From Candidatus Omnitrophota bacterium (GTDB lineage: Bacteria > Omnitrophota > Gorgyraeia > Zapsychrales > Zapsychraceae), in contig DOGZ01000014.1 of NCBI GenBank assembly GCA_003528115.1, forward strand, positions 66,466 through 130,465: a stretch of DNA of 64,000 nt. The letters run 5' to 3'. This document shows positions 39,215 to 64,000 of the stretch, piece after piece. Position numbers and translations under genes: made by a program. The notes below the pieces were generated by a model, which saw nothing but the letters and a program-made list of their open reading frames with translations, was not told the DNA's origin and ran no database searches. The stretch's first letter is position 1, and the number at the start of each line of letters is the position of its first letter.

Positions 39215-41506
39215 ATGGTGAGAAATATTTCATTCCTTATAGGACTTTCGCGTTTGGCGATCTGCTTCGTTGCAACCTTCTGTGCTTGCTCAGCGTACGG
39301 ACACTGTACGCCGCGCGGAGTTTATCCCGAGCTTTTCTCGGGACTCCTCGGTTGCGCCTCGAATTTCATCCAAACGCGAAAGTCCTACCTTAGAACGATA
39401 TCCGTTTTTTTCTTCGGTTTATCAATTTTTTTGTCGATTTTCCTGACGGGACACGCGTGGGCCCAATCTCCTAAAGAGTCTGTTGAATTAAACGGCGATA
39501 CGGTCGAATATTCGGTCGACGGCAATAAGGTAACGGCACAAGGAAACGTGGAGGTTGTTTATCAAGAGGTGCGGCTTATGTGTGATAGCGTGGAATTCTC
39601 CCGAGACACAAAGATGGCGTATGCCCAAGGCAATGTCCGTTTGGTGACAGGCCAGGGAGAGATCTCCGGCGATCGCATGGTCTTTAATTTTGAAACCATG
39701 AGCGGTGATTTTAACGGGGCGAAGATTTTTTCCAAGCCTTATTTCGGGCAAGCTAAAAAGATTTCTAAAAAGGAAGGCAACGAGATTGATCTGATTGAGG
39801 GCCATATGACCACCTGCGACCATGATAAACCGCATTTTAAAATGGTTTCCCGCAAAATAGAGATTTATCCGGGAGAAAAGATGGTTGCCCGTCGCAGCAA
39901 ACTGGTGTTAGGTAAGGTCCCGTTATTGTACCTCCCTAGGTTAACTCAGCGATTGGACGGAAAAAAGCCCCTGGTTGTTTTTACGCCGGGGTACAATAAA
40001 GAATGGGGGATGTTTGTTCTCTCCAAGACGTTTTTTCACATTAATGATAACCTCAAGGGATTTATCCGCGTCGATGCCAGGGAAAAAAGAGATGTGGCGG
40101 AAGGATTGGATCTTGAATATAAATCACCGAAGACGGGAAGCGGCCTTATCCGGACATACTACATGAATGAACGCAGGATCTCCGCCAAACGTTTTTATAA
40201 GGAACGCCCCACTCCGACCATCGAGAGGGAACGATTTAAAGCCGAATGGCGTCATAAGTGGAAGATCGATGACAATACCAATGCCATTTTACAGTATTAT
40301 AAATTAAGTGATAAAACACTTTTGAAGGAATATTTTGAAAGAGAGTTTGAGAAAGACAGCGCCCCGCAAACGTACTTTTTGTTAACGAGAAATTTGCCCA
40401 AAGGGACGTTCAGTTTCAGGACGGATGCCAGGGTTAACCGTTTTGAATCGGCGGTCGAGCGCCTCCCGGAAGTGCGCTACGATCTTTCAAATGAGAAAAT
40501 AGGGGAAACGGGGTTATATGTTAAAGATACGACGACCTTTTCTAATTTAACCTCCAAGACAGCCTCTCCCAGCGAAATCCGCAAAAAGACCCTGCGTCTT
40601 GACACGGAAAATGAGATTTCGTACCCCTTTAAGTTAGGATTTGTCGAATTGAAACCTTTTGTCGGGGGCCGAGAGACGTTTTACAGCAGGACGATCGATC
40701 CGGCGGAATACAACTCGATCCGTGGGATCTTCCGGACGGGATCAAGCCTGAGTACGAAATTTTACCGCCTTTGGGAAACCGAAACAGATGTCTGGGGCAT
40801 GGATATTCATCGTTTAAGACACATCGTGACGCCGACGGTATCGTATGTTTTTCAGGGGGACCCCACGATTCCGTCCTCCCATTTGGATTCCTTCGACAGT
40901 ATAGATTCTTTAAGTAATCAGCACTTCATTAATTTTTCTATTGAAAATAAATTGCAGACAAAAAGAGGGGGCGAGACGGTGGAATTGCTGCGCGCCATCC
41001 TAGGCACAGATTTCCATCTGAAGGAAGAGTCTACCAAGGGAGGTTTTGGAACCATAACTTCTGATATTGATTTCCGGCCCAAGGATTGGCTGACCTTGTA
41101 TTTTGACGCGGGTTATGATACAACAACGGATCGTTTAAGCACGGCCAACTTCGATTTGTATATTAACGGCAAAGACGACCGCTGGTCTTATGGCGTGGGG
41201 AAGAGGTTCAACTCAAATGCCGACGATCAACTGACCCAGGAATTAAAGTGGAAGATTAATCCCAAGTGGGCTTTGCGATGGTATCAGAGGTTTGATGTGG
41301 AGGCGGGTATTTTAAAAGAACAGGAATACACGATCCGACGCGATCTGCATGAATGGTTGATGGATATCAGCTTTAATGAAACGCGGGATGAGGGAGACGA
41401 AATCTGGATTATCTTTACACTCAAAGCTTTCCCGGATATCGCGCTGGACGTGGGCTCAGGGTTTAATGAACGCAAAGCGGGATCCCAGAGTGAAGATCGA
41501 CCGTAG
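39215..41506 (+). CDS. lptD: LPS-assembly protein LptD (OstA family); 5' end/start uncertain
   Basis: ~760 aa OstA-like organisation (N-terminal OstA domain plus large beta-barrel); the ORF's first ~60 codons are encoded by the MITE copy, so the true start is probably downstream, after ~39390. Confidence 0.7.
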   Translation: MVRNISFLIGLSRLAICFVATFCACSAYGHCTPRGVYPELFSGLLGCASNFIQTRKSYLRTISVFFFGLSIFLSIFLTGHAWAQSPKESVELNGDTVEYSVDGNKVTAQGNVEVVYQEVRLMCDSVEFSRDTKMAYAQGNVRLVTGQGEISGDRMVFNFETMSGDFNGAKIFSKPYFGQAKKISKKEGNEIDLIEGHMTTCDHDKPHFKMVSRKIEIYPGEKMVARRSKLVLGKVPLLYLPRLTQRLDGKKPLVVFTPGYNKEWGMFVLSKTFFHINDNLKGFIRVDAREKRDVAEGLDLEYKSPKTGSGLIRTYYMNERRISAKRFYKERPTPTIERERFKAEWRHKWKIDDNTNAILQYYKLSDKTLLKEYFEREFEKDSAPQTYFLLTRNLPKGTFSFRTDARVNRFESAVERLPEVRYDLSNEKIGETGLYVKDTTTFSNLTSKTASPSEIRKKTLRLDTENEISYPFKLGFVELKPFVGGRETFYSRTIDPAEYNSIRGIFRTGSSLSTKFYRLWETETDVWGMDIHRLRHIVTPTVSYVFQGDPTIPSSHLDSFDSIDSLSNQHFINFSIENKLQTKRGGETVELLRAILGTDFHLKEESTKGGFGTITSDIDFRPKDWLTLYFDAGYDTTTDRLSTANFDLYINGKDDRWSYGVGKRFNSNADDQLTQELKWKINPKWALRWYQRFDVEAGILKEQEYTIRRDLHEWLMDISFNETRDEGDEIWIIFTLKAFPDIALDVGSGFNERKAGSQSEDRP
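39240..39387 (+). repeat. MITE-like inverted-repeat element, copy A (terminal IR AGGACTTTCGCGTTTGG / CCAAACGCGAAAGTCCT)
   Basis: Near-identical second copy at 54780-54903; flanked by T...A; contains nested palindromes; copy A carries an extra ~24-bp hairpin insert. Confidence 0.75.
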
Positions 41507-41528
41507 TGTTGGAAAGAGGAAGGTTACA

Positions 41529-42851
41529 ATGGATATTGCTATTATAGGTTCGGGATATGTGGGGCTGGTGACCGGCGTCTGTCTGGCGCACATCGGCCAT
41601 CGGGTTATCTGTGTGGATAATAACCAGGAAAAGATCAAGAGATTAAGACAGGCTAAAATCCCTATTTATGAGCCGGGGTTGGATGAGTTGGTTAAGAAAT
41701 ATTTGAAGAGTAAGAGGCTTTCTTTTTCGACTTCCATCAAAGAGGCTACCCGAAAGGCGACGGTTATTTTTATAGCCGTGGGGACCCCCGCGCGGCAAAA
41801 TGGAGAAGCGGATTTAACGTACGTTGAGAATGTCGCCCGCGAGATCGCCCTGAATATGGATTCTTATAAGTTGATTGTCGAGAAATCGACCGTGCCCGCG
41901 GAGACAGGCAAACGCATTGAGCGCACCATAAAGTTGAATTTATCCAAGAAGTTCAGAAAAGGGAATAAAATCACCTTAGATTTCGACGTGGCCTCCAATC
42001 CCGAATTCCTGCGCGAGGGGTCCGCGATTCATGATTTTATGCATCCGGATCGAGTCGTGATCGGTGTGGAATCCAAAAAGGCGGAACAAATTTTCCGGGA
42101 GATCTATAAACCTTTAAAAACGCACATGATCGTCACGAATATCAGTTCCGCCGAGCTGATCAAACACGCCTCCAATTCGTTCCTTGCCACCAAAATTTCG
42201 TTTATTAATTCGATCGCCCAAATTTGTGATCACGTGGGGGCGGATGTCTTGAAAGTGGCTGAAGGGATGGGATTTGATAAACGCATCGGACGCCAATTCC
42301 TCGACGCGGGTATAGGTTACGGCGGCAGTTGTTTTCCCAAAGATGTGGAGGCCTTTATCCGCCTGAGCGAAAAAAGCGGGTATCATTTCAGCCTCCTCAA
42401 TGAAGTCAGGAATGTGAATGAATGCCAGAGAATTTCTTTTGTTAAACTTATCGAAGATAAATTATGGATTATTAAAGGGAAAAAAATCGGGATCCTGGGG
42501 CTGGCCTTTAAACCTAACACCGATGATATGCGCAATGCCCCTTCCATTGATTTAATCAATATGCTTCAAAATGAGGGGGCCCTCATTAAGGCGTATGATC
42601 CCAAGGCCATGCCCAATACAAAAAAGTGCCTAACAAAAGTGACGTACTGCAAGGATCCTTACGAATTGGCCAAAGGATGTGATTGTTTATTATTGGTCAC
42701 GGAGTGGGATGAATTCAAAGATTTGGATTTCAAGATGATCCGGCGGTTGATGAAGCAGCCTCTTGTATTCGACGGACGAAACTTGTATCATGACAAAAAT
42801 TTGAAAGAACTCGGTTTCGAGTATTATGGGATCGGACGTGGACAGATTTGA
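41529..42851 (+). CDS. ugd: UDP-glucose 6-dehydrogenase
   Basis: MDIAIIGSGYVGLV NAD motif; catalytic Cys region GYGGSCFPKD; start at ATG 41529 (ORF open from 41376, overlapping lptD). Confidence 0.85.
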   Translation: MDIAIIGSGYVGLVTGVCLAHIGHRVICVDNNQEKIKRLRQAKIPIYEPGLDELVKKYLKSKRLSFSTSIKEATRKATVIFIAVGTPARQNGEADLTYVENVAREIALNMDSYKLIVEKSTVPAETGKRIERTIKLNLSKKFRKGNKITLDFDVASNPEFLREGSAIHDFMHPDRVVIGVESKKAEQIFREIYKPLKTHMIVTNISSAELIKHASNSFLATKISFINSIAQICDHVGADVLKVAEGMGFDKRIGRQFLDAGIGYGGSCFPKDVEAFIRLSEKSGYHFSLLNEVRNVNECQRISFVKLIEDKLWIIKGKKIGILGLAFKPNTDDMRNAPSIDLINMLQNEGALIKAYDPKAMPNTKKCLTKVTYCKDPYELAKGCDCLLLVTEWDEFKDLDFKMIRRLMKQPLVFDGRNLYHDKNLKELGFEYYGIGRGQI

Positions 42852-42892: not shown

Positions 42893-44194
42893 ATGTCACT
42901 GGCCCTGAAAAGAAAAATTCTGGAAAAAAAGGCGCGGATTGCCGTGATAGGCCTGGGTTATGTGGGATTGCCTTTGGCGGTGAATTTTGCCAAGGCCGGG
43001 TTTAAGGTTTTTGGCGTCGACACGGACACCGATCGCATTGAAAAGATCCGTCAGAAGAAGAGTTATATTCTCGATGTCCCGCAAGCGGATATCGTCCGCG
43101 TGGTTCAGCAAGGAACGTTCGAGGCTATGACGGAATTCGAAATATTGAAGACGGTCGATGTCATTATCATTTGCGTCCCGACGCCCTTGAAACGGAAATA
43201 CACCCCGGATATCACCTATATCCTTAGCGCCGTGCGGTCTATCCGGAAATATTATAAAAAAGACACCTTGATTATCCTGGAAAGCACCACGTATCCTGGG
43301 ACAACGGAAGAGTTGATTTTGCCTGAACTGCAGAAGAGCGGTTATCAATTGGACAAGGATTTCTATCTCTCTTTTTCGCCGGAGCGCATTGACCCGGGGA
43401 ACAAGAGATATGATGTGACAAGGATTCCCAAAATTGTCGGCGGCATGACGCCCAAGAGCGGCGCTTTGACCCAACAGCTTTATGAGAATATTATCGGGAA
43501 GGTGCATCTGGTCTCCTCGGCTAAGGCCGCGGAAATGACCAAGCTCTTGGAGAATACGTTTCGTATTATCAACATCGGTTGGGTGAATGAAGTGGCGATG
43601 ATGTGCCATAAACTCGACATCGACGTCTGGGAGGTGATTGACGCGGCCAAGACTAAGCCGTTTGGTTTTATGCCGTTTTATCCCGGTTTGGGCGTCGGCG
43701 GACATTGTATCCCGGATGATCCGCTGTACCTTTACTGGAAGGCCAAACATCACGGTTTCAGCTCAAAGTTTATAAAAATTTCCGCGGATATTAATTCCCA
43801 TATGCCTTTTTACGCGGTGGACCGGTTGAAGGAAGTTTTGGGGAAGAACAACAAGCAACTCAAAGGGGCTCACGTGTTGGTCATTGGGGTGACGTATAAA
43901 AAGGATGTCAAGGATTTACGCAAGTCTCCTTCCGTAAAATTAATCGAAATCCTTCAAGGACAGCATTGTCGCGTGGATTACTTCGATCCCATCATCCCGT
44001 ATCTGTCCCTCGGCGCCATTCAGGCCGTTTCGGTGAAGTTGACGAAAGAGGAGTTAAGAAAATATGATTGTGTCGTGATAGCCACCGATCACACGGGGAT
44101 CGATTATCCTTTGATTCGGAAGCACGCGCGTCTCATTTTTGATATCCGCAATGTTTATGGAGAGACGCGGGATAAAAAAATTGTTAAATTTTAA
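42893..44194 (+). CDS. nucleotide-sugar dehydrogenase (UDP-N-acetyl-D-mannosamine / UDP-GlcNAc 6-dehydrogenase family)
   Basis: IAVIGLGYVGLPLA NAD motif; catalytic region GVGGHCIPDD. Confidence 0.8.
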   Translation: MSLALKRKILEKKARIAVIGLGYVGLPLAVNFAKAGFKVFGVDTDTDRIEKIRQKKSYILDVPQADIVRVVQQGTFEAMTEFEILKTVDVIIICVPTPLKRKYTPDITYILSAVRSIRKYYKKDTLIILESTTYPGTTEELILPELQKSGYQLDKDFYLSFSPERIDPGNKRYDVTRIPKIVGGMTPKSGALTQQLYENIIGKVHLVSSAKAAEMTKLLENTFRIINIGWVNEVAMMCHKLDIDVWEVIDAAKTKPFGFMPFYPGLGVGGHCIPDDPLYLYWKAKHHGFSSKFIKISADINSHMPFYAVDRLKEVLGKNNKQLKGAHVLVIGVTYKKDVKDLRKSPSVKLIEILQGQHCRVDYFDPIIPYLSLGAIQAVSVKLTKEELRKYDCVVIATDHTGIDYPLIRKHARLIFDIRNVYGETRDKKIVKF

Positions 44195-44227: not shown

Positions 44228-45181
44228 ATGGCACGAAAAAAAGTGGTCATGATAACCGGCGGGGCCGGTTTCTTGGGAAGTCATTTGTGTGACTGGTTTA
44301 TGAAGAAAGGGCTCAAAGTCATTTGTGTGGATAATCTCATCACAGGAAGCCTGGAGAACATCCGGCAGCATGCCAAAGACAAGAATTTTGAATTCATTAA
44401 ACATGATATCTCCAAAGAACTGCGTGTGGAAGGGCCGGTGGATTATGTCCTTCATTTTGCCTCTCCGGCAAGCCCTGTGGATTATTTGAATTTCCCAATC
44501 CCGACGCTGAAGGTCGGTTCTTTGGGTTCGCACAATATGCTGGGATTGGCCAAACTGAAGAAGGCCCGGTATCTTGTCGCCTCAACGTCTGAAGTTTACG
44601 GAGACCCGGAAGTCCATCCTCAGAAAGAGACCTATTGGGGGCACGTTAATCCTATCGGTCCGCGCGGGGTTTACGACGAAGCCAAGCGTTTTGCCGAGGC
44701 GATCACCATGGCGTATCATCGTTACCACAAGGTCGACACCAAGATCGTGCGTATTTTCAACACGTACGGCCCGCGGATGCGCATCCATGATGGACGGGTT
44801 GTTCCCAATTTTATTTTTCAGTCATTACGGAATCAACCCTTGACGGTTTATGGACGGGGAGAACAGACCCGGTCGTTTTGTTATTATTCCGATCTAATCG
44901 ACGGTATTACCCGTCTTCTGTATTCCGATATCCCGGGGCCGGTGAATATCGGCAATCCCGTTGAGTTTAAGATCATCGACTTCGCGAAGTTGGTAATTAA
45001 GCTTTCCGGGACCCGGAGCAAGATTGTTTACCGACCGTTGCCTGTCGATGACCCCAAACAGCGCAAACCGGACATCACCCTTGCCAGGAAGGTCTTGAAG
45101 TGGTCTCCCGACGTCAAATTGAGAGACGGCCTGGAGCAAACTATTCTGTGGTTCAAGAGCCATCTCCCCGCAGAACGCTGA
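44228..45181 (+). CDS. UDP-glucuronate decarboxylase (UDP-xylose synthase) family SDR
   Basis: [13 protein letters not shown] Rossmann motif, YDEAKR catalytic motif; follows ugd. Confidence 0.8.
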
Positions 45182-45246: not shown

Positions 45247-46227
45247 ATGATGCGTTCCGGTAATATTCCCTCAGACAAATTATTAGCAATGTATGCCTCG
45301 CTGCTCAAGATCCGCCGGGTCCAACTCAAGATCGAGGAACATTATCATGAAAACGCAATGAAGACCCCCGTGCACCTTTGCCTGGGGCAGGAGGCGGTTT
45401 CCGTCGGCGTATGCGCGAACTTAAAGACACGAGATATGATCTTCAGCAATCACCGCAGCCACGGCCATTATTTGGCCAAGGGCGGAGATTTAAAAGCCAT
45501 GATGGCGGAACTTTATTGTAAAGAGACGGGGTGCGCGAAAGGCCGCGGGGGATCGATGCATCTGATTGATAAATCCGTCGGACATTTTGGATCATCCGCG
45601 ATTGTCGGCGGCGGCATCCCTCACGCGGTGGGGGCCGCGTTCGCCTTTAAGATGCGCAAAGAAGATCTTGTGGCCGTGACATTTTTCGGCGACGCGGCTT
45701 CGGAACAGGGCGTTTTTTATGAGAGCATGAATTGGGCGGCCCTCAAGAAACTGCCCGTCATTTTTGTCTGCGAGAATAATCATTATTCCGTGTGTTCGCA
45801 TATTGATGTCCGTCAGGCGAATTATGATATTTCCATGAGGGCCAGGGCTTTTGATATTCCCTCGATGAGGGTCGATGGGATGAATCTCCTGGAGGTGTGT
45901 GAGAAATCCCAGGCGGCTATTGAAATGGCCAGGGCTGGGAATGGGCCGTATCTCTTGGAGTGTGTCGTGCAGCGATGGCGGGCCCACGCCGGAGCCGGAG
46001 ATCCCCAAAAAGAACAGTATCGCAAGACGGAAGACATGGATGAATCCCGAAGGCGGGACCCTTTAAAGGATTTTACCGCTTATCTTCTGGATCATCGCGC
46101 GGCCGGCCAAGATCAGCTTGACGTCGTAGACCGGCAGATTGATCAGGAGATTGAAGCGGCGTTTCGTTTCGCCCGCGAAAGCCCCCTGCCGGATCCGGCG
46201 GGATTAGAGAAGTATTTATATTGCTGA
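45247..46227 (+). CDS. TPP-dependent dehydrogenase E1 component alpha subunit (acetoin/pyruvate dehydrogenase E1-alpha-like)
   Basis: TPP-binding motif GDAASEQG...CENNHYS. Confidence 0.8.
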   Translation: MMRSGNIPSDKLLAMYASLLKIRRVQLKIEEHYHENAMKTPVHLCLGQEAVSVGVCANLKTRDMIFSNHRSHGHYLAKGGDLKAMMAELYCKETGCAKGRGGSMHLIDKSVGHFGSSAIVGGGIPHAVGAAFAFKMRKEDLVAVTFFGDAASEQGVFYESMNWAALKKLPVIFVCENNHYSVCSHIDVRQANYDISMRARAFDIPSMRVDGMNLLEVCEKSQAAIEMARAGNGPYLLECVVQRWRAHAGAGDPQKEQYRKTEDMDESRRRDPLKDFTAYLLDHRAAGQDQLDVVDRQIDQEIEAAFRFARESPLPDPAGLEKYLYC

Positions 46228-46396
46228 ATTCCGGACTCCCGGAGTGTTCCATTATTTTTGCGCAAGTCAGGCCACTGTAACAGAAAGTATTGATTAAGTT
46301 TGTACCCTTCTTTAATCCTCCCCGCCGTGGGGGAGGAAGGGTGGGGGGTGAAAAAAATTAGGTTACAATGCAATAGAGTGCGCAGGTCAATAAAAA

Positions 46397-47440
46397 ATGC
46401 CTTGGACCAAAATACAAGTCGAAAAACAGGAACCTGTCTTTGACGCCAGTGAAGGGCAGAATGTCCGCAAATTAAGTTACGGCGAGGCCATCCGCGAGGC
46501 CTTGGATCAGGCCCTGGAACGCGATCCCCGGGTCTATGTGATGGGGCAGGGGATCAATGATCCCGGGGGCATGTTTGGATCTACCGACGGTCTTTATAAA
46601 AAGTACGGTCTGGAGAGGGTCTTTGATACGCCGCTTTCCGAGGAGGGCATCCTGGGGATGGCCATCGGATCAGCCATGGCCGGCTTGCGTCCGGTTTCCA
46701 TCCATAACCGGCCGGACTTTCTTTTAATGGGGATGGACCAGATCGTCAATCACGCGGCCAAATGGAGTTATATGTTTGCCGGTCAAGTTCCGATCCCTCT
46801 GGTGATCCGTGCCTGTATCGGACGCGGATGGGGATCGGCGGCCCAGCATTCGCAGGCCTTGCAGTCCCTTTTTGTTCACATCCCCGGCCTCAAAGTGGTG
46901 ATGCCCTCGACGGCTTATGACGCGAAAGGATTATTGATCACCAGTATCGCCGATAATAACCCTGTTCTGTATTTTGAACAGCGCTGGGTGTACAAACATC
47001 AAGGGTATGTGCCTGAGGATGTTTATTCGATTCCCTTCGGGGAAGGGGTCATCAAAAGAGAAGGGACGGATGTTACGATCGTTGCCGTTTCTCACATGGT
47101 GATTGAATCCCTGCGCGCCGCAGAGGAATTGGAAAAAAAAGGCATCAGCGTTGAGATTATCGATCCACGCTCTTTAAAGCCTTTGGATGATCAGTTGATC
47201 CTTAAGTCTGTGGCCAAGACCGGCCGGCTGCTGGTCTCTGATTTGAGCTGGAAGACCGGCGGGTTCAGCGCTGAAGTCATCGCGACGGTCGTCGAGAAAG
47301 GATTTCACTTTCTTAAGAAAGCCCCTGTCCGCGTGGCCTTTCCGGATATCCCCACGCCCGCGGGCCATGTGCTGGAAGAGGCCTTTTATCCGGGGGTCGA
47401 GGATATTATTGAAGCCGTCCGGAAATTGATGGGAAAATGA
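46397..47440 (+). CDS. TPP-dependent dehydrogenase E1 component beta subunit (transketolase-like)
   Basis: 347 aa E1-beta architecture; paired with the E1-alpha upstream. Confidence 0.8.
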   Translation: MPWTKIQVEKQEPVFDASEGQNVRKLSYGEAIREALDQALERDPRVYVMGQGINDPGGMFGSTDGLYKKYGLERVFDTPLSEEGILGMAIGSAMAGLRPVSIHNRPDFLLMGMDQIVNHAAKWSYMFAGQVPIPLVIRACIGRGWGSAAQHSQALQSLFVHIPGLKVVMPSTAYDAKGLLITSIADNNPVLYFEQRWVYKHQGYVPEDVYSIPFGEGVIKREGTDVTIVAVSHMVIESLRAAEELEKKGISVEIIDPRSLKPLDDQLILKSVAKTGRLLVSDLSWKTGGFSAEVIATVVEKGFHFLKKAPVRVAFPDIPTPAGHVLEEAFYPGVEDIIEAVRKLMGK

Positions 47441-48390
47441 TGCGAAGACATTCGAAGATCCTGATCGTCGGGCACGACGACATCGTGGAAAACGCGTTGG
47501 TGGAACACTTTCAGTCGAAGGGGTTCAGCCGTGTCTTTTCTTCCTCCGCGATGGCCATGGACACCACCATTCAAACATCGGTTTATGATTTCTTTTCTCA
47601 GCATCGTCCCGAGTATGTGTTTTTAGGATCCACCCGTTCGGGCGGGATTGAAGCGAATCGGACAAGGGGCGCCGAATTTATTTATCATAACCTCGAGAGC
47701 CAAAATAACATTCTTTACGCGGCGCATAAGTTTGGTGTTGAGAAATTGCTTTTCCTGGCGAGTTCCTGTGTCTACCCCAAAGATTGCCCGCAGCCGATAC
47801 GGGAAGAGTCACTTTTAACCGGGGAGCTGGAGAAGACCAGTGAGCCCTACGCCGTGGCCAAGATCGCCGGCATCAAACTCTGTCAGGCGTTTCGACGGCA
47901 ATACGGACTTAAAACGGTGGTGATGATCCCTGCGACGATTTACGGACCGGGAAGTGATATGGATATCCAGACCGCTCATGTCATCGGCGCTTTGATCGGA
48001 AAGTTTGAATCGGCGGTAAGCCATCATGAAAAACAAGTGACGGTCTGGGGGACAGGCACGCCTCGAAGAGAGTTTATCTATGTGGAGGATTTTGTTCAGG
48101 CCTGTCTTTTCTTAATGGAGCATTATGATCAGGAAGAGATCGTGAATGCGGGGTGCGGATACGATGTCACCATTAAAGAACTGTCCGAGATGGTCGCTGA
48201 GGCGGTTGGATACAAAGGAGATATCATTTTTGACAGTTCCAAACCTGATGGAACGGCCAAGAAATTATTGCATAACAGCCGGATCACAAAACTAGGCTGG
48301 CGGCCCAGGGTTTCTTTAAAAGAAGGCGTTGAGAAAACAGTCGCGTGGTTTAAAGAGGAAGTCAAACATCAGAAGCGTGAATTTTTATAA
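47437..48390 (+). CDS. fcl: GDP-L-fucose synthase (GDP-4-keto-6-deoxymannose 3,5-epimerase/4-reductase)-like, with degenerate N-terminal Rossmann motif
   Basis: Recalled resemblance to E. coli Fcl (e.g. LLFLASSCVYPK...EPYAVAKIAGIKLCQAF); ATG overlaps the E1-beta stop (ATGA). Confidence 0.75.
   Translation: MMRRHSKILIVGHDDIVENALVEHFQSKGFSRVFSSSAMAMDTTIQTSVYDFFSQHRPEYVFLGSTRSGGIEANRTRGAEFIYHNLESQNNILYAAHKFGVEKLLFLASSCVYPKDCPQPIREESLLTGELEKTSEPYAVAKIAGIKLCQAFRRQYGLKTVVMIPATIYGPGSDMDIQTAHVIGALIGKFESAVSHHEKQVTVWGTGTPRREFIYVEDFVQACLFLMEHYDQEEIVNAGCGYDVTIKELSEMVAEAVGYKGDIIFDSSKPDGTAKKLLHNSRITKLGWRPRVSLKEGVEKTVAWFKEEVKHQKREFL
48298..48378 (+). repeat. direct repeat copy 1 (native 3' end of fcl)
   Basis: ~80 bp repeated at 49654-49733 (1 mismatch) and, more diverged, at 51412-51469. 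Confidence 0.85.
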
Positions 48391-48465
48391 CAGTGTATTT
48401 TATTGGCGCTTTTTATTATTTAATCAGACTTCTTCAAGGGATTTAGAATTAAAAAAGGATGTGAA

Positions 48466-48711
48466 ATGCGTATCCCCCCTAATAAACAATTATTTTGGTT
48501 TCTTAAAGATACTGTCTCTTTAGATCTGTCTAAAACTTCAGACCTGGAGCTGTATGTACAACAGGTACTATCCAGAGGAAACCAAGAGGACGTCAAAGCC
48601 CTCTTAACTGCGGTTGATTTTGAACAATTTAAGCAAGTATTCTCAAGAATTAAACGATTTTTTCCCTGGGAGGTTCGGGCTTTTTGGGAGGATTTCATTG
48701 AAAATTATTAA
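48466..48711 (+). CDS. small hypothetical protein, candidate antitoxin of the downstream AbiEii-like gene
   Basis: 81-aa ORF whose stop overlaps the likely TTG start (~48695) of the nucleotidyltransferase gene; no recognised domain. Confidence 0.3.
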   Translation: MRIPPNKQLFWFLKDTVSLDLSKTSDLELYVQQVLSRGNQEDVKALLTAVDFEQFKQVFSRIKRFFPWEVRAFWEDFIENY

Positions 48712-49378
48712 CTCGGTTCAAGAAAAAATTCTCAAAAGTTTCGGCGACATTAAAGACAGTGACCAGTTTTATTTAACTGGAGGTACCGCCCTGTCTTATT
48801 TTTATTTAAAACATAGACAGAGCAATGATCTGGACTTTTTTACTTCTACAGAAGAAATTGTCGGCTCATTCAGCCATCAACTTGAGGATCATTTAAAAGC
48901 TAATGGATTTAAGTGTCAGCGGCAAAGGGGGCTCCATTCATTTGTAGAACTGATTGTGACATTGGATAATGAAACAACGCTAATTCATCTTGCCGTAGAT
49001 GCTGCTTTTCGCTTCGAACCAACGAAAGAATTTCCTGCTTTCCTTCATCTGAAGGTTGATAACTTAACTGATATTGCGTCAAATAAATTATTGGCACTAT
49101 TTGGAAGAGCCACTTTAAGGGATTTCATTGACGTTTATTTTCTGATTAAAAAAGAGGGATTTTCAAAAGAACAATTAATTGATACTGCCAAGAAAAAAGA
49201 CCCGGGATTTGATTTGTATTGGCTCGGCGTGGCTTTTGAACGGATTAATACCTTTGACTCAAAATCTACGGATATCTTTATGCTCGTTAAGCCTTTACCA
49301 ATCGAAGAATTAAAAACGTTTTTCAACCAATGGCGTAAAGAAATTGCCGGCGAATTAAAACCTTTTAAAGGACAATAG
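48695..49378 (+). CDS. AbiEii/AbiGii-family (DUF1814) nucleotidyltransferase, putative type IV TA/abortive-infection toxin
   Basis: Motifs LTGGTALSYFYL, HRQSNDLDFF and RDFIDVYFL match recalled DUF1814 family motifs; AT-rich relative to neighbours; the ORF is open from 48614 but the probable start is TTG at ~48695. Confidence 0.6.
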   Translation, partial: SLKIINSVQEKILKSFGDIKDSDQFYLTGGTALSYFYLKHRQSNDLDFFTSTEEIVGSFSHQLEDHLKANGFKCQRQRGLHSFVELIVTLDNETTLIHLAVDAAFRFEPTKEFPAFLHLKVDNLTDIASNKLLALFGRATLRDFIDVYFLIKKEGFSKEQLIDTAKKKDPGFDLYWLGVAFERINTFDSKSTDIFMLVKPLPIEELKTFFNQWRKEIAGELKPFKGQ

Positions 49379-49381
49379 GTC

Positions 49382-49515
49382 CCTAACTCCTAATTAGGAA
49401 TTTCTATTCTCCTCGAGAGCTCATCGATATCCATTTTGCACCCATTGGGTGAAAAAACTAGCTCGTCGAAATATCGAGGGAGCCATGATTCTCTAATTAG
49501 GAGTTGAGGATAGGT
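49382..49515. repeat. short inverted-repeat-bounded element (CTAACTCCTAATTAGGA ... TCTAATTAGGAGTTGAG)
   Basis: 15-17 bp imperfect inverted repeats around a perfect 10-bp palindrome CCTAATTAGG, spaced ~100 bp apart in non-coding DNA. Confidence 0.4.
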
Positions 49516-49614
49516 GTTCCCATAGCGGCAAATGAGGTTCAAGCAAAGGATGAGGCGAAGGACAACGCCTTGACGTTATGTCGTCAAGGTCGGCCACCGG
49601 CGTGAGGTGTGAGG

Positions 49615-49733
49615 TTGCAATTGTCGCCCGCGGGAGAGAATTGTAGTGTAAAAGGCGGCCCAGGATTTCTTTAAAAGAAGGCGTTGAGAAAACAGTCGCG
49701 TGGTTTAAAGAGGAAGTCAAACATCAGAAGCGT
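49615..49733 (+). repeat. direct repeat copy 2 (junction module plus fcl 3'-end duplicate)
   Basis: 49654-49733 is ~99% identical to 48299-48378; 49615-49658 is similar to 51367-51410. Confidence 0.85.
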
Positions 49734-50047
49734 CCTGGTGCTTATTAAAAAAGGCGGTGGCATAGCGTTTATCGACGTCCGCACAAGTAATAGAATGCAT
49801 CCCTTTGGCAAAAGGACGTCGTTATACTGACTACTAGCACATTCTATTTCTTTTACAGAAGTCAGTAATTTACTTTGCAAGAAAAGAAATAAGAAATTTT
49901 TTTCTTGAGCTGTCGTTATTATGAAAAATAAAGTCTACATTCAGACATGGGGCTGGGCGATGAACGCGTTATAGGATGAGAATGGAGAGGACAGCTAAAC
50001 CATAGTAAATAATAAGTTGTAACAGAAATCATCTTTCTCTTAAAATT

Positions 50048-51007
50048 ATGCACGACAAAAATCTTCATTTATGGCAACATGCGCACACCTTTGGACAGGA
50101 GCATAAACGCTCCGGGGAACGCCGTACGACTCTTGTTATTGTCATTACGGCTGCAATGATGGCGGTTGAGATTGTTACCGGCATCCTCTTCGGCTCTATG
50201 GCCTTACTTGCCGATGGTCTGCACATGGCCTCTCATACAATTGCCCTTTTAATCAACGTTTTTGCCTACATCTATGCCCGACGTCATTCCCATGATACGC
50301 GGTACAGTTTCGGTACGGGAAAGGTCAACGCTCTGGGAGGATTCACCGGAGCAGTCCTACTCGCCGTTTTTGCTCTTATGATGGCGTGGGGGAGTATGGA
50401 GCGCCTTATGCATCCTGTTTCTATTGCCTTTAATCAAGCTATCTTTGTGGCCATCATCGGATTGATTATTAATGGAGTTTCGGTCTTTATCCTTGGGCAC
50501 GAAGAAGATAATCATGACGCGCATGAACATTCCGACCATCACCACGATGACCGCCACGACCACAATTTAAAATCAGCCTATTTTCATGTTTTAGCCGATG
50601 CCCTGACATCCATTCTGGCGATTATCGCTCTCTTGACAGCAAAATACTTTGGCCTCATTTGGATGGATCCTCTGATGGGCATTGTCGGTGCCATTTTGGT
50701 ATGCCAATGGTCGTTGGGACTTTTACGAACAACGAGCTCCATCTTGCTTGATAGACAGGGATCGGACGAACTCAAAACAAAGATCAAGGAAAGCATTGAA
50801 AGTGTTGGTGATAGTCGGGTCGCTGACCTGCATCTCTGGGTGTTGGGTCCGAATATCTACGGTGTCATCATTTCGGTGGTTACTCATAATCCCGAATCGC
50901 CGGAGTACTATAAAAAATTACTTCCTCTTCATTTGGGCCTTGCGCACGTGACAGTTGAGGTTTATCCGTGTCCCAACAAGGAAGAAACCAAAGTGTCGAA
51001 TCGATGA
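50048..51007 (+). CDS. czcD: cation diffusion facilitator (CzcD/ZitB-type) divalent metal efflux transporter
   Basis: 6 TM helices, His-rich cytoplasmic loop HEEDNHDAHEHSDHHHDDRHDHN, C-terminal CDF domain. Confidence 0.85.
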   Translation: MHDKNLHLWQHAHTFGQEHKRSGERRTTLVIVITAAMMAVEIVTGILFGSMALLADGLHMASHTIALLINVFAYIYARRHSHDTRYSFGTGKVNALGGFTGAVLLAVFALMMAWGSMERLMHPVSIAFNQAIFVAIIGLIINGVSVFILGHEEDNHDAHEHSDHHHDDRHDHNLKSAYFHVLADALTSILAIIALLTAKYFGLIWMDPLMGIVGAILVCQWSLGLLRTTSSILLDRQGSDELKTKIKESIESVGDSRVADLHLWVLGPNIYGVIISVVTHNPESPEYYKKLLPLHLGLAHVTVEVYPCPNKEETKVSNR

Positions 51008-51015
51008 AGTAAAGA

Positions 51016-51222
51016 AACAAAAGACCGCGCGGTACGAAAACCGAGATTGTCGAAGCCGCTATCGCTTCCTTTAAAAAGGAATTCGCGATTTCCGATCTCG
51101 AAAAAGCCTGCCCGGGAGTAAGCCGGGACATGATCCGCATTGTGATGAACCGCTTAAGGAAAGAGGGGCGGTTAAAAATCCTGGGCCGTGGCCGCGATGC
51201 ACGGTGGGCAAAACTCAAATAG
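51016..51222 (+). pseudogene. gene remnant: C-terminal winged-helix-like fragment without a start codon
   Basis: Frame open from a TAA stop at ~51013 with no usable start; translation ...ISDLEKACPGVSRDMIRIVMNRLRKEGRLKILGRGRDARWAKLK resembles C-terminal wHTH tails (e.g. of Fic/AbiEi-type proteins). Confidence 0.35.
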
Positions 51223-51366
51223 ACAATAGCACATCTTAACGTGGTAATGAATGTGGTAATATCAAGGGGTGCCGGAGAAGACCGTTGCCTGCCCTGAGTG
51301 AACGAAGTATGTCGATGGGGTACAATCCTAATGAAGGAGGGTGTCCTGGGAATTCTGGGAATGAGT

Positions 51367-51469
51367 TTGCAATTGTCGCCCGCGGAAGAGAATTGCAGAG
51401 TAAAATGCGGCGAGGTTTCTGTAAAAGAAGGCGTTGAGAAAACAGTCGCGTGGTTTAAAGAGAAAGTCA
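51367..51469 (+). repeat. direct repeat copy 3 (junction module plus diverged fcl 3'-end remnant) upstream of the epimerase gene
   Basis: TTGCAATTGTCGCCCGCGG... shared with copy 2; TAAAAGAAGGCGTTGAGAAAACAGTCGCGTGGTTTAAAGAG shared with the fcl 3' end. Confidence 0.8.
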
Positions 51470-51487
51470 ACAGACAGGAGAGTGTTC

Positions 51488-52420
51488 ATGAAGATATTAG
51501 TCACCGGAGGCGCGGGTTATTTAGGCGCTGTTATCGTTCCTGTATTACTGAAAGAAGGCCACCAGGTCTCGGTGGTTGACAATTTTATGTATAATCAAAC
51601 CCCTTTGCTGGATTGCTGCCATCATCGCGACTTAACGATTATCCGGGGGGATGCCCGGGATAAATCCCTTATTGCCAGGGAATTAAAAACCGCCGATGCC
51701 ATTTTCCCGCTGGCCTGTTTGACCGGCGCGCCTTTGTGCGCGAAAGATCCCCAGGCCGCGGAATCCATCATCGTCGAGTCCATAAAGATGATTTTGAGCT
51801 TGCGGAGCCCGGCCCAGAAAATTATTTATCCAACGACGAACAGCGGTTACGGTGTCGGCGAGAAGGGGAAGCATTGTACCGAAAAGACTCCTTTAAGACC
51901 GGTCTCTGTTTACGGCCGGCTGAAGGTCAAGGCGGAAGAGGAACTATTAAATGCCAAAGGAGCGATAACCTTGCGTTTGGCGACGGCTTTTGGGGTGAGC
52001 CCCCGGATGCGGCTGGATCTTCTGGTCAACGACTTTACGTACCGGGCGGTGAATGACCGTTTTGTGGTGTTGTTTGAAGCCCATTTTAAACGGAACTATA
52101 TTCATGTGCGCGACGTGGCCAAGGCCTTTGTACATTCTTTGAATCGTTTTGACAAAATGAAGGACGAACCATATAATGTAGGCCTGAGTGACGCCAATTT
52201 AAGCAAGTTGGAACTCTGCGCGGAGATCAAGAAACACGTTTCTGAATTCTATTTTGTCGAATCGGCGATCGGTCAGGATCCTGATAAAAGAGATTACATC
52301 GTCAGCAATGAAAAAATTGAGGAAACAGGATTCAAACCCGATGTCTCTCTCTCGGAAGGTATAAGCGAGCTTGTCAAGGGATACCAAATTATCAAGAGAA
52401 ATCAATACACAAATGTCTAA
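51488..52420 (+). CDS. NAD-dependent nucleotide-sugar epimerase/dehydratase (SDR)
   Basis: MKILVTGGAGYLGAV Rossmann motif and catalytic YGRLK (YxxxK); start at ATG 51488 (the ORF upstream of it is out-of-context repeat sequence). Confidence 0.8.
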   Translation: MKILVTGGAGYLGAVIVPVLLKEGHQVSVVDNFMYNQTPLLDCCHHRDLTIIRGDARDKSLIARELKTADAIFPLACLTGAPLCAKDPQAAESIIVESIKMILSLRSPAQKIIYPTTNSGYGVGEKGKHCTEKTPLRPVSVYGRLKVKAEEELLNAKGAITLRLATAFGVSPRMRLDLLVNDFTYRAVNDRFVVLFEAHFKRNYIHVRDVAKAFVHSLNRFDKMKDEPYNVGLSDANLSKLELCAEIKKHVSEFYFVESAIGQDPDKRDYIVSNEKIEETGFKPDVSLSEGISELVKGYQIIKRNQYTNV

Positions 52421-52534: not shown

Positions 52535-53995
52535 ATGGATATAGTCTTCATCAAAGCGAATAATCAAAAGAAAATCTATCAGGACCTCAGTAAAGATTTT
52601 ACGGGCATTGAACCTCCTTTATGGCTGGCCTTGACGGCCGCTTATATCAGAGAATACGGTTTCTCTGTGGCTGTGATTGACGCAGAGGCTGAAAATCTCG
52701 ATACCCAGGAAACGGTCGATCGGATCAAAGAATTCAATCCACGATTAGCCTCGGTGGTTGTCTCGGGGACGAACCCTTCCGCGTCCACTTTGAATATGCC
52801 CGGCGCGGGCGAAGTCCTAAGAGAGATGAAAAAGAAATGTCCGGGTATTCCAACGGTCATCTCCGGTCTTCATCCTTCAGCCTTGCCCGAGCGAACGGTG
52901 AAGGAAGAAACGGCCGATTTTGTTATGGAAGGGGAAGGGTTATCGACGCATTTAGAACTTCTTCAGGCCTTAAAATCAGGGAAGACGCTGGATGAAGAAT
53001 TTGCCCTGGACGGTCTTTGGTATAAAAGAGACGGCCGAATTATTTCCCATCCCAGGGCGGTCAATGTGAATGATTTGGGGATCCTGCCGATGCCGGCGTG
53101 GGATCTGCTGCCCATGGAGCAGTACCGGGCGCATAACTGGCATTGTTTTGGCCATGTCGATGAACGCCAGCCGTACGCCGTCATTTATACAAGTTTGGGG
53201 TGTCCGTTCAACTGCAGTTTTTGTTGCATCAATGTCACCTTCGGAGGATCAGGGATCCGGTATCGTCCTCCGGTCAAGGTCGTCGAAGAAATCGATTTTC
53301 TTGTGAAAAATTACGGCGTGAAGAATATCAAGGTCCTCGATGAACTGTTTGCCATGAAACAAACTCATGTGGAGGAATTATGTGATCGTCTGATTGCCCG
53401 CGGGTATGATCTGAATTTCTGGGTGTACGGCCGGATTGACACGGTCAAAGAATCCATGCTGGCCAAGATGAAGAAGGCGGGGATCAACTGGATTGCCTAC
53501 GGGATCGAGGCCGGCAGTAAAAGGGTGCGTGATGGAGTTTCCAAAGGGAGGTTCGATCAGGAACAGATTCGAAAGGTCGTTAAAATGACTCAGGCGGCCG
53601 GCATTTATGTCGTCGGTAATTTTATTTTCGGACTTCCTGAAGATGATCTTCAGACCATGCAGGAAACCTTGGATTTAGCCAAGGGATTAAATTGCGAGTA
53701 CGCCAACTTTTACTGTGCCATGGCGTATCCGGGTTCCAAGCTTTATGACGATGCCCTGGCGCAGGGGATCGCGCTTCCCCGGACATGGACCGGATACGCG
53801 CAATTTAGTGAAGAGACATTCCCCTTGGCGACGAAATATATCTCGGGCGCGGATGTCCTGCGGTTTCGCGATAAAGCCTTTGATGAATATTACGGCAGTC
53901 CGGTTTATTTAAATATGATTGAAGAAAAGTTCGGAGTGAGGACCGTTGAACATATCAAGGAAATGTGTTCCGTGAAGTTGAAAAGAAAATATTAG
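52535..53995 (+). CDS. B12-binding domain radical SAM enzyme
   Basis: N-terminal cobalamin-binding-like domain; radical SAM cluster motif CPFNCSFC (CxxxCxxC). Confidence 0.8.
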   Translation: MDIVFIKANNQKKIYQDLSKDFTGIEPPLWLALTAAYIREYGFSVAVIDAEAENLDTQETVDRIKEFNPRLASVVVSGTNPSASTLNMPGAGEVLREMKKKCPGIPTVISGLHPSALPERTVKEETADFVMEGEGLSTHLELLQALKSGKTLDEEFALDGLWYKRDGRIISHPRAVNVNDLGILPMPAWDLLPMEQYRAHNWHCFGHVDERQPYAVIYTSLGCPFNCSFCCINVTFGGSGIRYRPPVKVVEEIDFLVKNYGVKNIKVLDELFAMKQTHVEELCDRLIARGYDLNFWVYGRIDTVKESMLAKMKKAGINWIAYGIEAGSKRVRDGVSKGRFDQEQIRKVVKMTQAAGIYVVGNFIFGLPEDDLQTMQETLDLAKGLNCEYANFYCAMAYPGSKLYDDALAQGIALPRTWTGYAQFSEETFPLATKYISGADVLRFRDKAFDEYYGSPVYLNMIEEKFGVRTVEHIKEMCSVKLKRKY

Positions 53996-54029
53996 ACGGC
54001 GGGAAAGAGGGGAAAACGAGAGGGGATTT

Positions 54030-55714: not shown

Positions 55715-55736
55715 TATGTCCATCAAGGGTGGAGAA

Positions 55737-57997: not shown

Positions 57998-58040
57998 AAG
58001 TCCTGAGATTAAGAGTAAAGGGCTGAAGCACGGACTGACC

Positions 58041-59958: not shown

Positions 59959-59964
59959 TGCCCC

Positions 59965-61050: not shown

Positions 61051-61102
61051 CCATAGATTCCAATTTCCCAGGCGCCTGGAAAATTGGGGGAAACAAGAAG
61101 GG

Positions 61103-63000: not shown

Positions 63001-63069
63001 GGTCGGGATTCAAACCCGAGGACTTTGGTTATGGTGGAATCCCGGATCAATCGAAAGGGAGATGGAGGA

Positions 63070-63696: not shown

Positions 63697-64000
63697 ATGA
63701 AAATCCTCGTTATTCACGCCTCGGCCGGGGCGGGACATCTGAAAGCCGCCGAAGCCATTTATCAGGGTCTCATCCGCGACTCCCGGCATCACGTCGTTCT
63801 CGTGGACGCTCTGGACTATACGAGTCCGTTTTCCAAGAAACTTTACCGGGAGGCGTACGCTTTTGTGATCTCCAGGATGCCTCGGCTCTGGGGGTTCCTG
63901 TTTTCTCTTCTGGATGTGAATGTCCTTCAGCCTTTTGTCAGGAAGGTGAGAAGGGCGCATAACGCCCTTAGCGCCGGGAAGTTACACCGTTTCTTGCGGG
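63697..64000 (+). CDS. MGDG-synthase/MurG-like (GT28) glycosyltransferase, 5' partial (runs off the window)
   Basis: N-terminus MKILVIHASAGAGHLKAAEAI typical of diacylglycerol glycosyltransferases. Confidence 0.5.
   Translation, partial: MKILVIHASAGAGHLKAAEAIYQGLIRDSRHHVVLVDALDYTSPFSKKLYREAYAFVISRMPRLWGFLFSLLDVNVLQPFVRKVRRAHNALSAGKLHRFLR

Follow-up and report, generated by a model that had tools for sequence, protein, structure and literature searches.

In this work, we present an analysis of two neighbouring genes that encode the alpha and beta subunits of an E1-type enzyme dependent on thiamine diphosphate (ThDP), located at positions 45247-47440 of a 64,000-nucleotide stretch of contig DOGZ01000014.1 from a Candidatus Omnitrophota bacterium (hereafter the window, meaning the whole of this stretch). 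We are highly confident that the pair serves a glycan pathway and is not a component of a dehydrogenase complex. On balance, we favour its reading as an E2-independent ThDP carboligase of a GDP-heptose tailoring cassette, which would add a two-carbon (C2) branch to a keto-sugar destined for a surface glycan. Further, and with slightly more doubt than belief, we propose that the pair marks undescribed and very widespread envelope sugars, i.e. C-branched or C2-extended heptoses of at least nine carbons, possibly C-methylated by a B12-binding radical S-adenosylmethionine (SAM) enzyme. Their makers would be a clade of E2-independent E1 enzymes, present in at least a dozen phyla and marked by the beta-subunit signature H-x-R-x-D-F, and the sister pairs of the candidate phyla radiation (CPR) and of DPANN archaea would yield branched amino sugars of a related kind.

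An E1 pair without E2 and E3

E1-alpha, the ThDP/Mg-binding subunit, is encoded at 45247-46227 on the + strand (326 aa); it matches the Pfam family E1_dh (PF00676) with E = 2.5e-71, and its ThDP motif is intact (G148-D-A-A-S-E-Q-G...E176-N-N). E1-beta is encoded at 46397-47440 on the + strand (347 aa) and comprises the pyrimidine-binding domain (PF02779, Transket_pyr, 2.1e-33) and the C-terminal domain (PF02780, Transketolase_C, 2.1e-38). An earlier annotation made from the letters only, called here the sequence-only reading, had proposed such a pair with the GDAASEQG...ENN motif at this place, and Pfam confirms both open reading frames (ORFs). The nearest solved structures belong to pyruvate dehydrogenase (PDH): human PDH E1-alpha for the alpha subunit (3e-57), and PDH E1-beta of Pyrobaculum (4e-78) and of Geobacillus (9e-76) for the beta subunit. 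Alignment to 1w85_B, 3duf_B and the E2-linked pairs described below places Glu82 of E1-beta on Geobacillus beta-E59 and His151 on beta-H128, and His247 of E1-alpha aligns with the catalytic alpha-His (alpha-H271 equivalent).

A full-length E1 architecture with conserved catalytic His and Glu is also what would be expected of the E1 of an ordinary pyruvate or acetoin dehydrogenase, with E2 and E3 encoded elsewhere and with a merely coincidental position among sugar genes. E1-beta passes the cut-off of the NCBIfam PDH E1-beta subfamily model NF006667, and of that model only (330.7 vs 321), and the identity to genuine E2-linked pairs amounts to 39-44%. E1-alpha, on the other side, stays below the PDH equivalog cut-offs (TIGR03182, 335.5 vs 393.85; TIGR03181, 216 vs 411). 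This and the evidence of the following paragraphs make an ordinary dehydrogenase very improbable in our opinion.

Pfam scans of the large ORFs over the entire 64 kb revealed purine synthesis, chaperone, LptD and glycan genes, and no protein with a 2-oxoacid_dh, lipoyl or pyridine-nucleotide disulfide oxidoreductase domain. In a tblastn search of all six frames of the window with AceF and Lpd of E. coli, the best E value was 0.3. The lack of E2 and E3 genes, which the sequence-only reading had noticed only for the vicinity of the pair, holds in this way for the whole window, and it recurs in 79 of 80 related loci, the searched region being the window and ±10 kb around each of the related pairs.

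The stop codon of E1-beta (TGA, 47438-47440) overlaps the ATG (47437-47439) of an ORF similar to Fcl, which gives ATGA at 47437-47440, just as had been read from the letters; judging by this overlap, the two genes are translationally coupled.

Conservation and phylogeny of the pair

Close homologues of the pair (56-73% identity) come mainly from Candidatus Omnitrophota and Planctomycetota. Six of their neighbourhoods share a common string of genes, made up of E1-alpha, E1-beta, sometimes the Fcl-like gene, a 310-aa short-chain dehydrogenase/reductase (SDR), a B12-radical SAM enzyme, a GHMP kinase, a small nucleotidyltransferase and a DegT-family protein; no E2 or E3 was present in these six neighbourhoods. 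For a broader comparison, one genome per species was scanned and 80 related loci (43-68% identity) were kept, in which the ORFs within ±10 kb were labelled according to the best BLASTP match to a small reference set including AceF and Lpd of E. coli. E1-beta follows E1-alpha in 78 of the 80 loci. An E2 homologue was found once (L085, beside a second E1 pair) and an E3 homologue in none (0/80), while at least one sugar-type gene was labelled in 68/80. Twelve loci have no labelled sugar gene, and five of these are short contigs (<11 kb). The particular partners are the 310-aa SDR at a minimum of 50% identity (30/80), a GHMP kinase of the HddA-like type (28/80), the nucleotidyltransferase (26/80), the Fcl-like gene (25/80), the B12-radical SAM gene (19/80, orthologues of at least 40% identity) and a GmhA-like SIS gene (11/80). 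Four plasmid-borne pairs, 39-44% identical to the E1-alpha of the window, served as positive controls: E2 lies directly downstream in all four, accompanied by E3 in three of them. Sequence identity was rejected as a functional criterion, since E2-linked pairs reach 44% to the window E1-alpha and E2-less ones begin at 43%.

A neighbour-joining tree of concatenated alpha and beta sequences (87 pairs, 651 columns) places the window pair inside a clade of 45 pairs with a bootstrap of 99/100, and the E2-linked pairs group in a clade of their own (100/100). Phylogeny had been named by the sequence-only reading as a check on its proposal; the separation of E2-less from E2-linked pairs is now seen, and the AviB, KbDH and AlmD pairs of known sugar pathways are not among the 87 pairs of the tree. 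Members of the 45-pair clade come from 12 or more phyla: Omnitrophota, Planctomycetota, Desulfobacterota (including the cultured NaphS2 and Desulfovibrio/Solidesulfovibrio), Chloroflexota, Elusimicrobiota, Caldisericota, Nitrospinota, Firestonebacteria, Auribacterota, Kiritimatiellae, Bacteroidota and Bacillota. Most of them carry a cassette of C4-dehydrogenase, GHMP kinase, nucleotidyltransferase, a DegT protein with His in place of the catalytic Lys (His-DegT), B12-radical SAM and Fcl-like genes. It is difficult to reconcile an ordinary dehydrogenase in an accidental position with the same sugar-gene synteny over so many phyla, a plasmid-borne glycan island among them, with a clade apart from the E2-linked pairs, or with the presence of the pair also in CPR and DPANN genomes.

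Farther E2-less pairs occur in CPR bacteria, Woesearchaeota, Nanoarchaeota, Bathyarchaeota and Firmicutes, where the neighbours are Lys-type DegT aminotransferases, other SDRs, ManC-like genes and glycosyltransferases. Pairs of DPANN and other archaea and of CPR beside Lys-type DegT, SDR and glycosyltransferase genes were noted in L031, L032, L046, L052, L061, L063, L067, L071 and L076.

The full cassette is also found in a cultured organism, Solidesulfovibrio magneticus RS-1, on plasmid pDMC1 (58.7 kb; 22.5-39.7 kb of the record; L088). Its additional genes are lhgO, a SIS/GmhA gene, a NUDIX gene, two genes of glycosyltransferase family 2 (GT2) and one for a PMT/ArnT-like glycosyltransferase, and IS66 elements adjoin it. 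The alpha and beta subunits of S. magneticus RS-1 have the accessions WP_043602384 and WP_012750632. In five variant loci (L006, L015, L064, L079 and L097), the E1 genes are accompanied by a split transketolase, an adh_short reductase, a SPASM radical SAM protein, a PHP-domain protein and more radical SAM/C-methyltransferase genes, and such cassettes suggest more elaborated sugars with more than one ThDP step.

Active-site differences from complex-forming E1 enzymes

Residues 103-108 of E1-beta (window 46703-46720) form the signature H103-x-R105-x-D-F108, and the HMMER alignment to 1w85_B puts Arg105 on beta-F82 and Phe108 on beta-F85. In the alignment, the residue at beta-F82 is Arg in each of the 81 E2-less pairs and Phe in each of the six E2-linked ones, and the local motif, E-(I/L/F)-(Q/M)-F-x-D-F in the latter, reads x-H-x-R-x-D-F in the former. 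In the E1p of Geobacillus stearothermophilus, the catalytic H128-beta lies in a hydrophobic nest of beta P125, T124, F85 and F82 (PMC2663715). The nest is incomplete in the window protein with respect to its two Phe residues, as F82 is replaced by Arg105 and F85 is kept as F108. Moreover, the position of beta-I80 is occupied by His in the window E1-beta, and the equivalents of beta-E28/D29 are Gln/Gly throughout the heptose clade. In the alpha subunit, the inner active-site loop, which in E1 enzymes gates the entry of the lipoyl domain, is three residues longer and does not contain the G-H-S-x-S-D pattern.

The Phe-to-Arg exchange and the lengthened inner loop speak once more against an ordinary dehydrogenase, and the substitutions taken together would fit a changed second substrate. 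No structure exists of any E1 pair that accepts ketones (PMC12247030). The HxRxDF signature, or the change of beta Phe82 to Arg, could be used as an annotation marker to discriminate between complex-forming and carboligase-type E1 enzymes, the latter being currently mislabelled as pyruvate or acetoin dehydrogenase.

Partners of the pair in the cassette

The most informative partner is the 310-aa SDR encoded at 51488-52420 (+), a Cj1427-type GDP-heptose C4-dehydrogenase according to its match to PDB 6vo6/6vo8 (2.5e-121), which we take to be Cj1427. It is 56% identical over 308 residues to a 313-aa SDR of Campylobacter jejuni (the 6vo6 chain), and the copy from S. magneticus reaches 65%. A search with the sequence of the 6vo6 chain led to the 313-aa C. 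jejuni protein (cluster representative, 96% identical). Its gene adjoins, in the Cj1423-Cj1430 arrangement, those for a 345-aa Fcl-like SDR, a dTDP_sugar_isom epimerase, a GHMP kinase, a SIS isomerase and a nucleotidyltransferase, and our naming of 6VO6 as Cj1427 rests on its agreement with this neighbourhood. In the ORF list, the gene starts with TTG at 51434, inside the third copy of a repeat described below; the homologues begin with MKILVTGG, which corresponds to the ATG at 51488. Since the SDR of the cassette is a Cj1427 orthologue, the scaffold is probably GDP-D-glycero-D-manno-heptose. The NDP-4-keto-6-deoxyhexose named for assays in the sequence-only reading is probably not the scaffold.

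Cj1427 makes GDP-4-keto-heptose with the use of 2-oxoglutarate, and the C3-dehydratase of serotype HS:5 converts this product to GDP-3-deoxy-4-keto-heptose (PMC10680097). A gene for L-2-hydroxyglutarate oxidase, lhgO, is present within the plasmid cassette of S. magneticus RS-1, and genes of LhgO-like or DAO-family proteins flank the SDR gene in L020, L021, L058, L095, L096 and L097, which would fit a recycling of the Cj1427 by-product. Two loci of Bacillota (L095 and L096) possess Cj1427 homologues (67% identical) with a DAO/LhgO-like gene and a GHMP kinase and have no E1 pair. Because the module occurs there without the pair, the ThDP step is an optional add-on to a widespread module of GDP-heptose C4-oxidation.

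The DegT-family protein encoded at 55680-56891 (+) is predicted to be a C3-dehydratase of the ColD/E1 type, dependent on pyridoxamine 5'-phosphate (PMP), with His in place of the Schiff-base Lys. In its alignment to GDP-perosamine synthase, LYAAH falls on FFGNK, so the Lys of the internal aldimine is replaced by His, and the replacement of this Lys by His is a hallmark of ColD and of CDP-4-keto-6-deoxyglucose 3-dehydrase. All 23 cassette orthologues have the His, as do nine members of a second DegT lineage which takes its place in other cassettes, whereas the Lys is kept in the other DegT protein of the window (61019-62239) and in 20 further Lys-type homologues. The top NCBIfam match of the cassette protein is RfbH. 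Two DegT aminotransferases had been counted in the sequence-only reading; this remains valid for the one at 61019-62239 with its catalytic Lys, and the one at 55680-56891 turns out to be of the dehydratase type. As the latter is not an aminotransferase, the amino sugar that had been suggested would depend solely on the second DegT, which lies outside the conserved cassette.

The Fcl-like SDR is encoded at 47437-48390 (+) and scores 378 bits with NF047922, below the equivalog cut-off of 500; it is 32% identical to the Cj1428-type C4-reductase of C. jejuni. The Ser/Tyr/Lys triad and the Cys are kept, and the GxxGxxG motif is degenerate (VGHDDIVENA instead of the expected AGHxGxVGSA), a feature common to the Omnitrophota orthologues (L001, L006 and L013), orthologues of other phyla being canonical. 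Furthermore, Gly is found at the position which we take to be His179 of E. coli GDP-fucose synthase, the epimerase His of the Cys109/His179 pair. Because of the degenerate dinucleotide motif and the missing epimerase His, the protein is not a canonical GDP-fucose synthase, contrary to what the name fcl in the sequence-only reading implied. Its sequence is probably that of an atypical keto-reductase, and it perhaps does not act as an ordinary NADPH-dependent reductase.

The B12-binding radical SAM enzyme (52535-53995, +; PF02310, PF04055) has only weak matches, to HpnJ, BchE and AprD4. It is a candidate for C-methylation or for a radical rearrangement or dehydration. The HddC-like sugar-1-phosphate nucleotidyltransferase (54030-54767, +), probably specific for GDP, is 34% identical to HddC of C. 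jejuni and scores 154 bits with the HddC model NF049965 and 156 bits with the mannose-1-phosphate guanylyltransferase model, both under the cut-off. In general, the kinase and transferase of the cassette are closest to HddA and HddC, and weakly so (30-36% identity, under the NCBIfam cut-offs; 30% for the HddA-like kinase of relatives). NCBIfam gave no above-threshold assignment for the SDR, the radical SAM protein, the kinase or the transferase.

Proposed pathway and its alternatives

We infer a pathway in which the order of steps, pyruvate as the donor, the acceptor with its C4 position, and the roles of the Fcl-like and B12-radical SAM proteins are all of a provisional character. The HddC-like transferase would activate heptose-1-phosphate, with the HddA-like kinase also present in relatives, and the Cj1427-type SDR would oxidise C4 with 2-oxoglutarate as the oxidant. 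The His-variant DegT would then take off the 3-OH to give GDP-3-deoxy-4-keto-heptose. In the following step, E1-alpha/beta would decarboxylate pyruvate to hydroxyethylidene-ThDP and transfer the C2 unit onto the sugar carbonyl, with a 4-C-acetyl branch as the result. The Fcl-like SDR and the B12-radical SAM enzyme would complete the sugar by reduction and by methylation or another radical step, and glycosyltransferases of the locus would attach the product. The conserved partners make a 4-keto sugar and remove its 3-OH, which follows the substrate logic of yersiniose, so that addition of C2 to the carbonyl is the best explanation. A yersiniose-like role of a ThDP enzyme in a nucleotide-sugar pathway had been put forward in the sequence-only reading. 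Its pathway part agrees with the sugar synteny (68/80), the separate clade and the 4-keto and 3-deoxy partners, and the carboligation itself we infer.

The same glycan pathway could employ other ThDP chemistry, namely the addition of C2 onto an aldehyde (e.g. one made by the radical SAM enzyme from the C6-C7 diol of the heptose), the use of another 2-oxo acid or hydroxypyruvate as the donor, or a carbonyl other than that at C4. This we regard as clearly less probable than C4 branching from pyruvate, and as an alternative that deserves attention. Aldehydes are the usual acceptors of ThDP enzymes, and the best solved relative of the radical SAM protein is the diol-dehydratase AprD4, although the match is weak (70.7 bits; NF033070, 89.6 bits) and far under the family cut-off. 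Three loci (L006, L079 and L097) keep the pair without the 3-dehydratase, and the split transketolase added in several loci points to multiple C2 transfers; nevertheless, the tight linkage of the pair with enzymes that form the 4-keto group and remove the 3-OH reproduces the yersiniose substrate. A C4-reductase of the Fcl-like kind fits better if C4 remains a ketone; still, all characterised E1 pairs of sugar pathways put acetyl from pyruvate on a ring ketone (PMC12247030).

Another possibility is that the pair produces an acyl group and not a C-branch, the hydroxyethyl-ThDP being oxidised or transferred so that an acetyl or similar group ends on an amino sugar, a carrier protein or some other acceptor. 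A pair 47% identical to that of the window on Streptomyces plasmid pSGRIFU1 lies beside genes for a condensation-domain protein, an acyl carrier protein (ACP) and a phosphopantetheinyl transferase (PPTase), and the farther pairs of CPR and DPANN sit with Lys-type DegT aminotransferases. The cassette, for its part, includes no carrier protein, condensation domain or oxidant partner, its DegT is of the dehydratase type, so the conserved core forms no amino group, and the Streptomyces pair is not one of the 45 members of the heptose clade. We consider this explanation improbable. In the Streptomyces locus (L089; S. griseofuscus, 137.1-139.1 kb of the pSGRIFU1 record), the 47% identity refers to the alpha subunit and ketosynthase genes are also present; the locus points to another E2-independent use of the E1 fold.

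Several observations weigh against C2 branching of a GDP-heptose by the pair. The 47%-identical Streptomyces pair has a condensation-domain protein and ACP and not sugar genes as its neighbours, which means that E2-less pairs have more than one use. If C4 turns into a tertiary alcohol, the enzyme resembling a C4-reductase is left with no obvious ring substrate, and the 3-dehydratase is missing from the three cassette variants named above (L006, L079, L097). The cassette of the window is itself disrupted, by an insertion of 3 kb, by the lack of an HddA-like kinase and GmhA, and by the degenerate motif of the Fcl-like protein. Finally, the tree is a distance-based one with only six E2-linked outgroup pairs.

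Organization of the locus in the window

Upstream of the pair, a UDP-glucose 6-dehydrogenase homologue is encoded at 41376-42851 (+), with the N-terminal, central and C-terminal UDPG_MGDP_dh domains and 574 bits to the NCBIfam model TuaD. Its ORF and the LptD gene have 131 nt in common and the Pfam domain starts at residue 52; translation probably begins only past the LptD stop at 41506. It is followed by a second NDP-sugar 6-dehydrogenase, similar to UDP-ManNAc/GlcNAc dehydrogenases (42893-44194, +; TIGR03026, 440 bits), and by a homologue of UDP-glucuronate decarboxylase (UXS; 44228-45181, +; 358 bits to human UXS1). The genes that the sequence-only reading had placed on both sides of the pair, UXS and fcl, are indeed there, the downstream one as the Fcl-like gene with its 378 bits. 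UDP-glucose 6-dehydrogenase and UXS genes stand beside the pair only in Omnitrophota loci, outside the widely conserved cassette. The possibility that UXS supplies a UDP-4-keto-pentose to the pair was rejected on this account, since the two genes are confined to Omnitrophota and the Cj1427-type SDR follows the pair across phyla.

The spacer between the two E1 genes (46228-46396, no strand assigned) is a non-coding and structured segment of 169 nt, the longest alpha-beta gap among 73 related pairs, for which the median is 6 nt. Its folding gave a minimum free energy of -55.3 kcal/mol (z = -2.84), centred on the hairpin CCTCCCCGCCGTGGGGGAGG, and the 20-mer of the hairpin is unique within the window. 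A Rfam scan of 44-52 kb matched no riboswitch or other RNA in the spacer. A promoter and terminator scan gave near-background counts, which were disregarded.

Between the Fcl-like gene and the SDR gene, which in the relatives L001 and L006 are separated by just a short gap, the cassette is split by an insertion of about 3 kb (48391-51487, no strand assigned), which contains an ORF for an AbiEii toxin (48614-49378) and one for a CDF cation-efflux protein (50048-51007). The B12-radical SAM gene, described in the sequence-only reading as adjacent to the pair, is for that reason not strictly so, the insertion separating the Fcl-like gene from the remaining cassette genes. The terminal 80 nt of the Fcl-like gene (48299-48378) recur as direct repeats at 49654-49733 (99%) and 51404-51483 (80%), and the copies bracket both inserted units. 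Copies 2 and 3 extend to about 125 nt, and the GC content at 48-50 kb is 40%. The region 48299-51483 gives the impression of two cassette insertions, one after the other, at a single junction.

The HddA-like kinase gene, which in relatives (L001, L003 and L005) lies between the radical SAM and transferase genes, is cleanly absent at 53995-54030, and a search of the 64-kb window, which ends at 64000, found no homologue of HddA kinase or GmhA. A GT2 glycosyltransferase (54917-55714, +; PF00535, 1.1e-32) is encoded between the transferase and the His-DegT. Further downstream, at 56765-61050 (+), there are genes of glycosyltransferase families 4 (GT4), 2 (GT2) and 9 (GT9, heptosyltransferase family) and of a ManC-like guanylyltransferase, identified by Pfam and TIGR01479 (349 bits), in a context of lipopolysaccharide (LPS) or glycan assembly. 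The second DegT, a candidate sugar aminotransferase (61019-62239, +; PF01041, 2.6e-124), has its Lys in a YPTK motif. The last of these genes encodes a GmhB-like heptose 1,7-bisphosphate phosphatase (63025-63627, +), with 147 bits to NF006506 (cut-off 178) and 120 bits to TIGR01656 (above its 84).

Comparison with known systems

ThDP-dependent C-branching of keto-sugars, Cj1427-type oxidation and ColD-type 3-deoxygenation are already known. In a literature search, we found no description of the combination of an E1-type carboligase, a GDP-heptose cassette and a B12-radical SAM enzyme, and nothing informative on the LPS of Omnitrophota. So far, E1-type sugar branching is known solely in some 120 antibiotic clusters of actinomycetes, with only one enzyme tested in vitro and none with a solved structure. 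Branched sugars of the cell wall have up to now been ascribed to enzymes of the YerE type. If the cassette works as proposed, E1-type carboligases would be a common tool for envelope glycans across mostly uncultured phyla, and a new family of higher-carbon branched heptoses would be predicted. Cultured and tractable carriers are available in the magnetotactic sulfate reducer Solidesulfovibrio magneticus RS-1 (pDMC1) and in strain NaphS2. The E1-type carboligases are also candidate biocatalysts toward tertiary alcohols.

The E1 enzymes of dehydrogenase complexes (E1p of G. stearothermophilus, human PDH E1, AcoA/AcoB) have the same fold, domain order and ThDP/Mg motif as the window pair, and their beta-E59, beta-H128, alpha-H271 and beta-F85 equivalents are also kept. 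Unlike them, the window pair has no E2 or E3, Arg at beta-F82, an altered alpha loop and an alpha subunit under the equivalog cut-off. The pair does not belong to this family by three criteria, namely the E2 partner, the equivalog score and the residue of the lipoyl channel.

The pathway of yersiniose starts with a 4-keto sugar, followed by PMP-dependent 3-deoxygenation, addition of an acyl branch at C4 by a ThDP enzyme (YerE, acetyl from pyruvate) and reduction (PMC9306805). The pathway of yersiniose A (DdhC/E1, YerE, YerF) and the erwiniose and caryophyllose variants share their chemical logic with the route proposed here. The catalysts differ, as YerE is a single-chain, FAD-containing member of the decarboxylase/acetolactate-synthase superfamily and the window enzyme is of the E1 heterotetramer type; according to Pfam, the only ThDP enzyme at the locus is of the E1 type and no YerE-type one is encoded there. 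The substrates differ as well: CDP-3,6-dideoxyhexose in the case of yersiniose and, probably, a GDP-heptose retaining C6-OH and C7-OH here. ColD and the E1 of CDP-4-keto-6-deoxyglucose-3-dehydrase share with the window DegT the fold and the His in place of Lys, whereas the latter protein is nearer to GDP-perosamine synthase (241 bits) than to ColD (162) or E1 (176).

With the heptose pathway of C. jejuni (HddC, GmhA, HddA, Cj1427, Cj1430, Cj1428, and the C3-dehydratase of HS:5), the cassette shares the Cj1427-type SDR (56%), the HddC-like transferase (34%), in relatives the HddA-like kinase (30%), the Fcl-like protein (32%) and the type of C3-dehydratase (PMC10680097). The C. jejuni pathway has neither a ThDP enzyme nor a B12-radical SAM enzyme, and it leads to deoxyheptoses or heptose epimers that carry no branch. 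The window, in turn, lacks a cupin C3/C5-epimerase of the C. jejuni type, HddA and GmhA.

The nearest functional parallel is that of actinomycete E1 alpha/beta pairs, which are proposed to install acetyl branches from pyruvate on keto-sugars and, in the case of KbDH, were demonstrated in vitro to do so (PMC12247030, PMC4753412). These alphaKADH2 pairs comprise AviB1/AviB2 of avilamycin, Pau11/Pau12 of paulomycin, AlmDI/DII of aldgamycin and KbDH-alpha/beta of kibdelomycin (PMC12247030, PMC4753412), and a 2025 review assigns E1-type branching enzymes to specialised metabolites and YerE-type ones to LPS (PMC12247030). Similarly to the window pair, they consist of separate E1-alpha and E1-beta chains without E2 and E3 and are encoded among NDP-keto-sugar genes, a likeness drawn from their published description. 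The window pair lies in such an NDP-keto-sugar cluster, with the Cj1427 orthologue, the His-DegT and the nucleotidyltransferase in the same string, an arrangement kept in relatives, and its membership in the characterised group of sugar-branching E1 enzymes is plausible. The alphaKADH2 pairs serve the 2,6- or 3,6-dideoxyhexoses of secondary metabolites of Actinomycetota, whereas pairs of the window type belong to envelope glycan loci of Omnitrophota, Planctomycetota, Desulfobacterota and others, with a GDP-heptose as the probable substrate and a B12-radical SAM enzyme as the partner.

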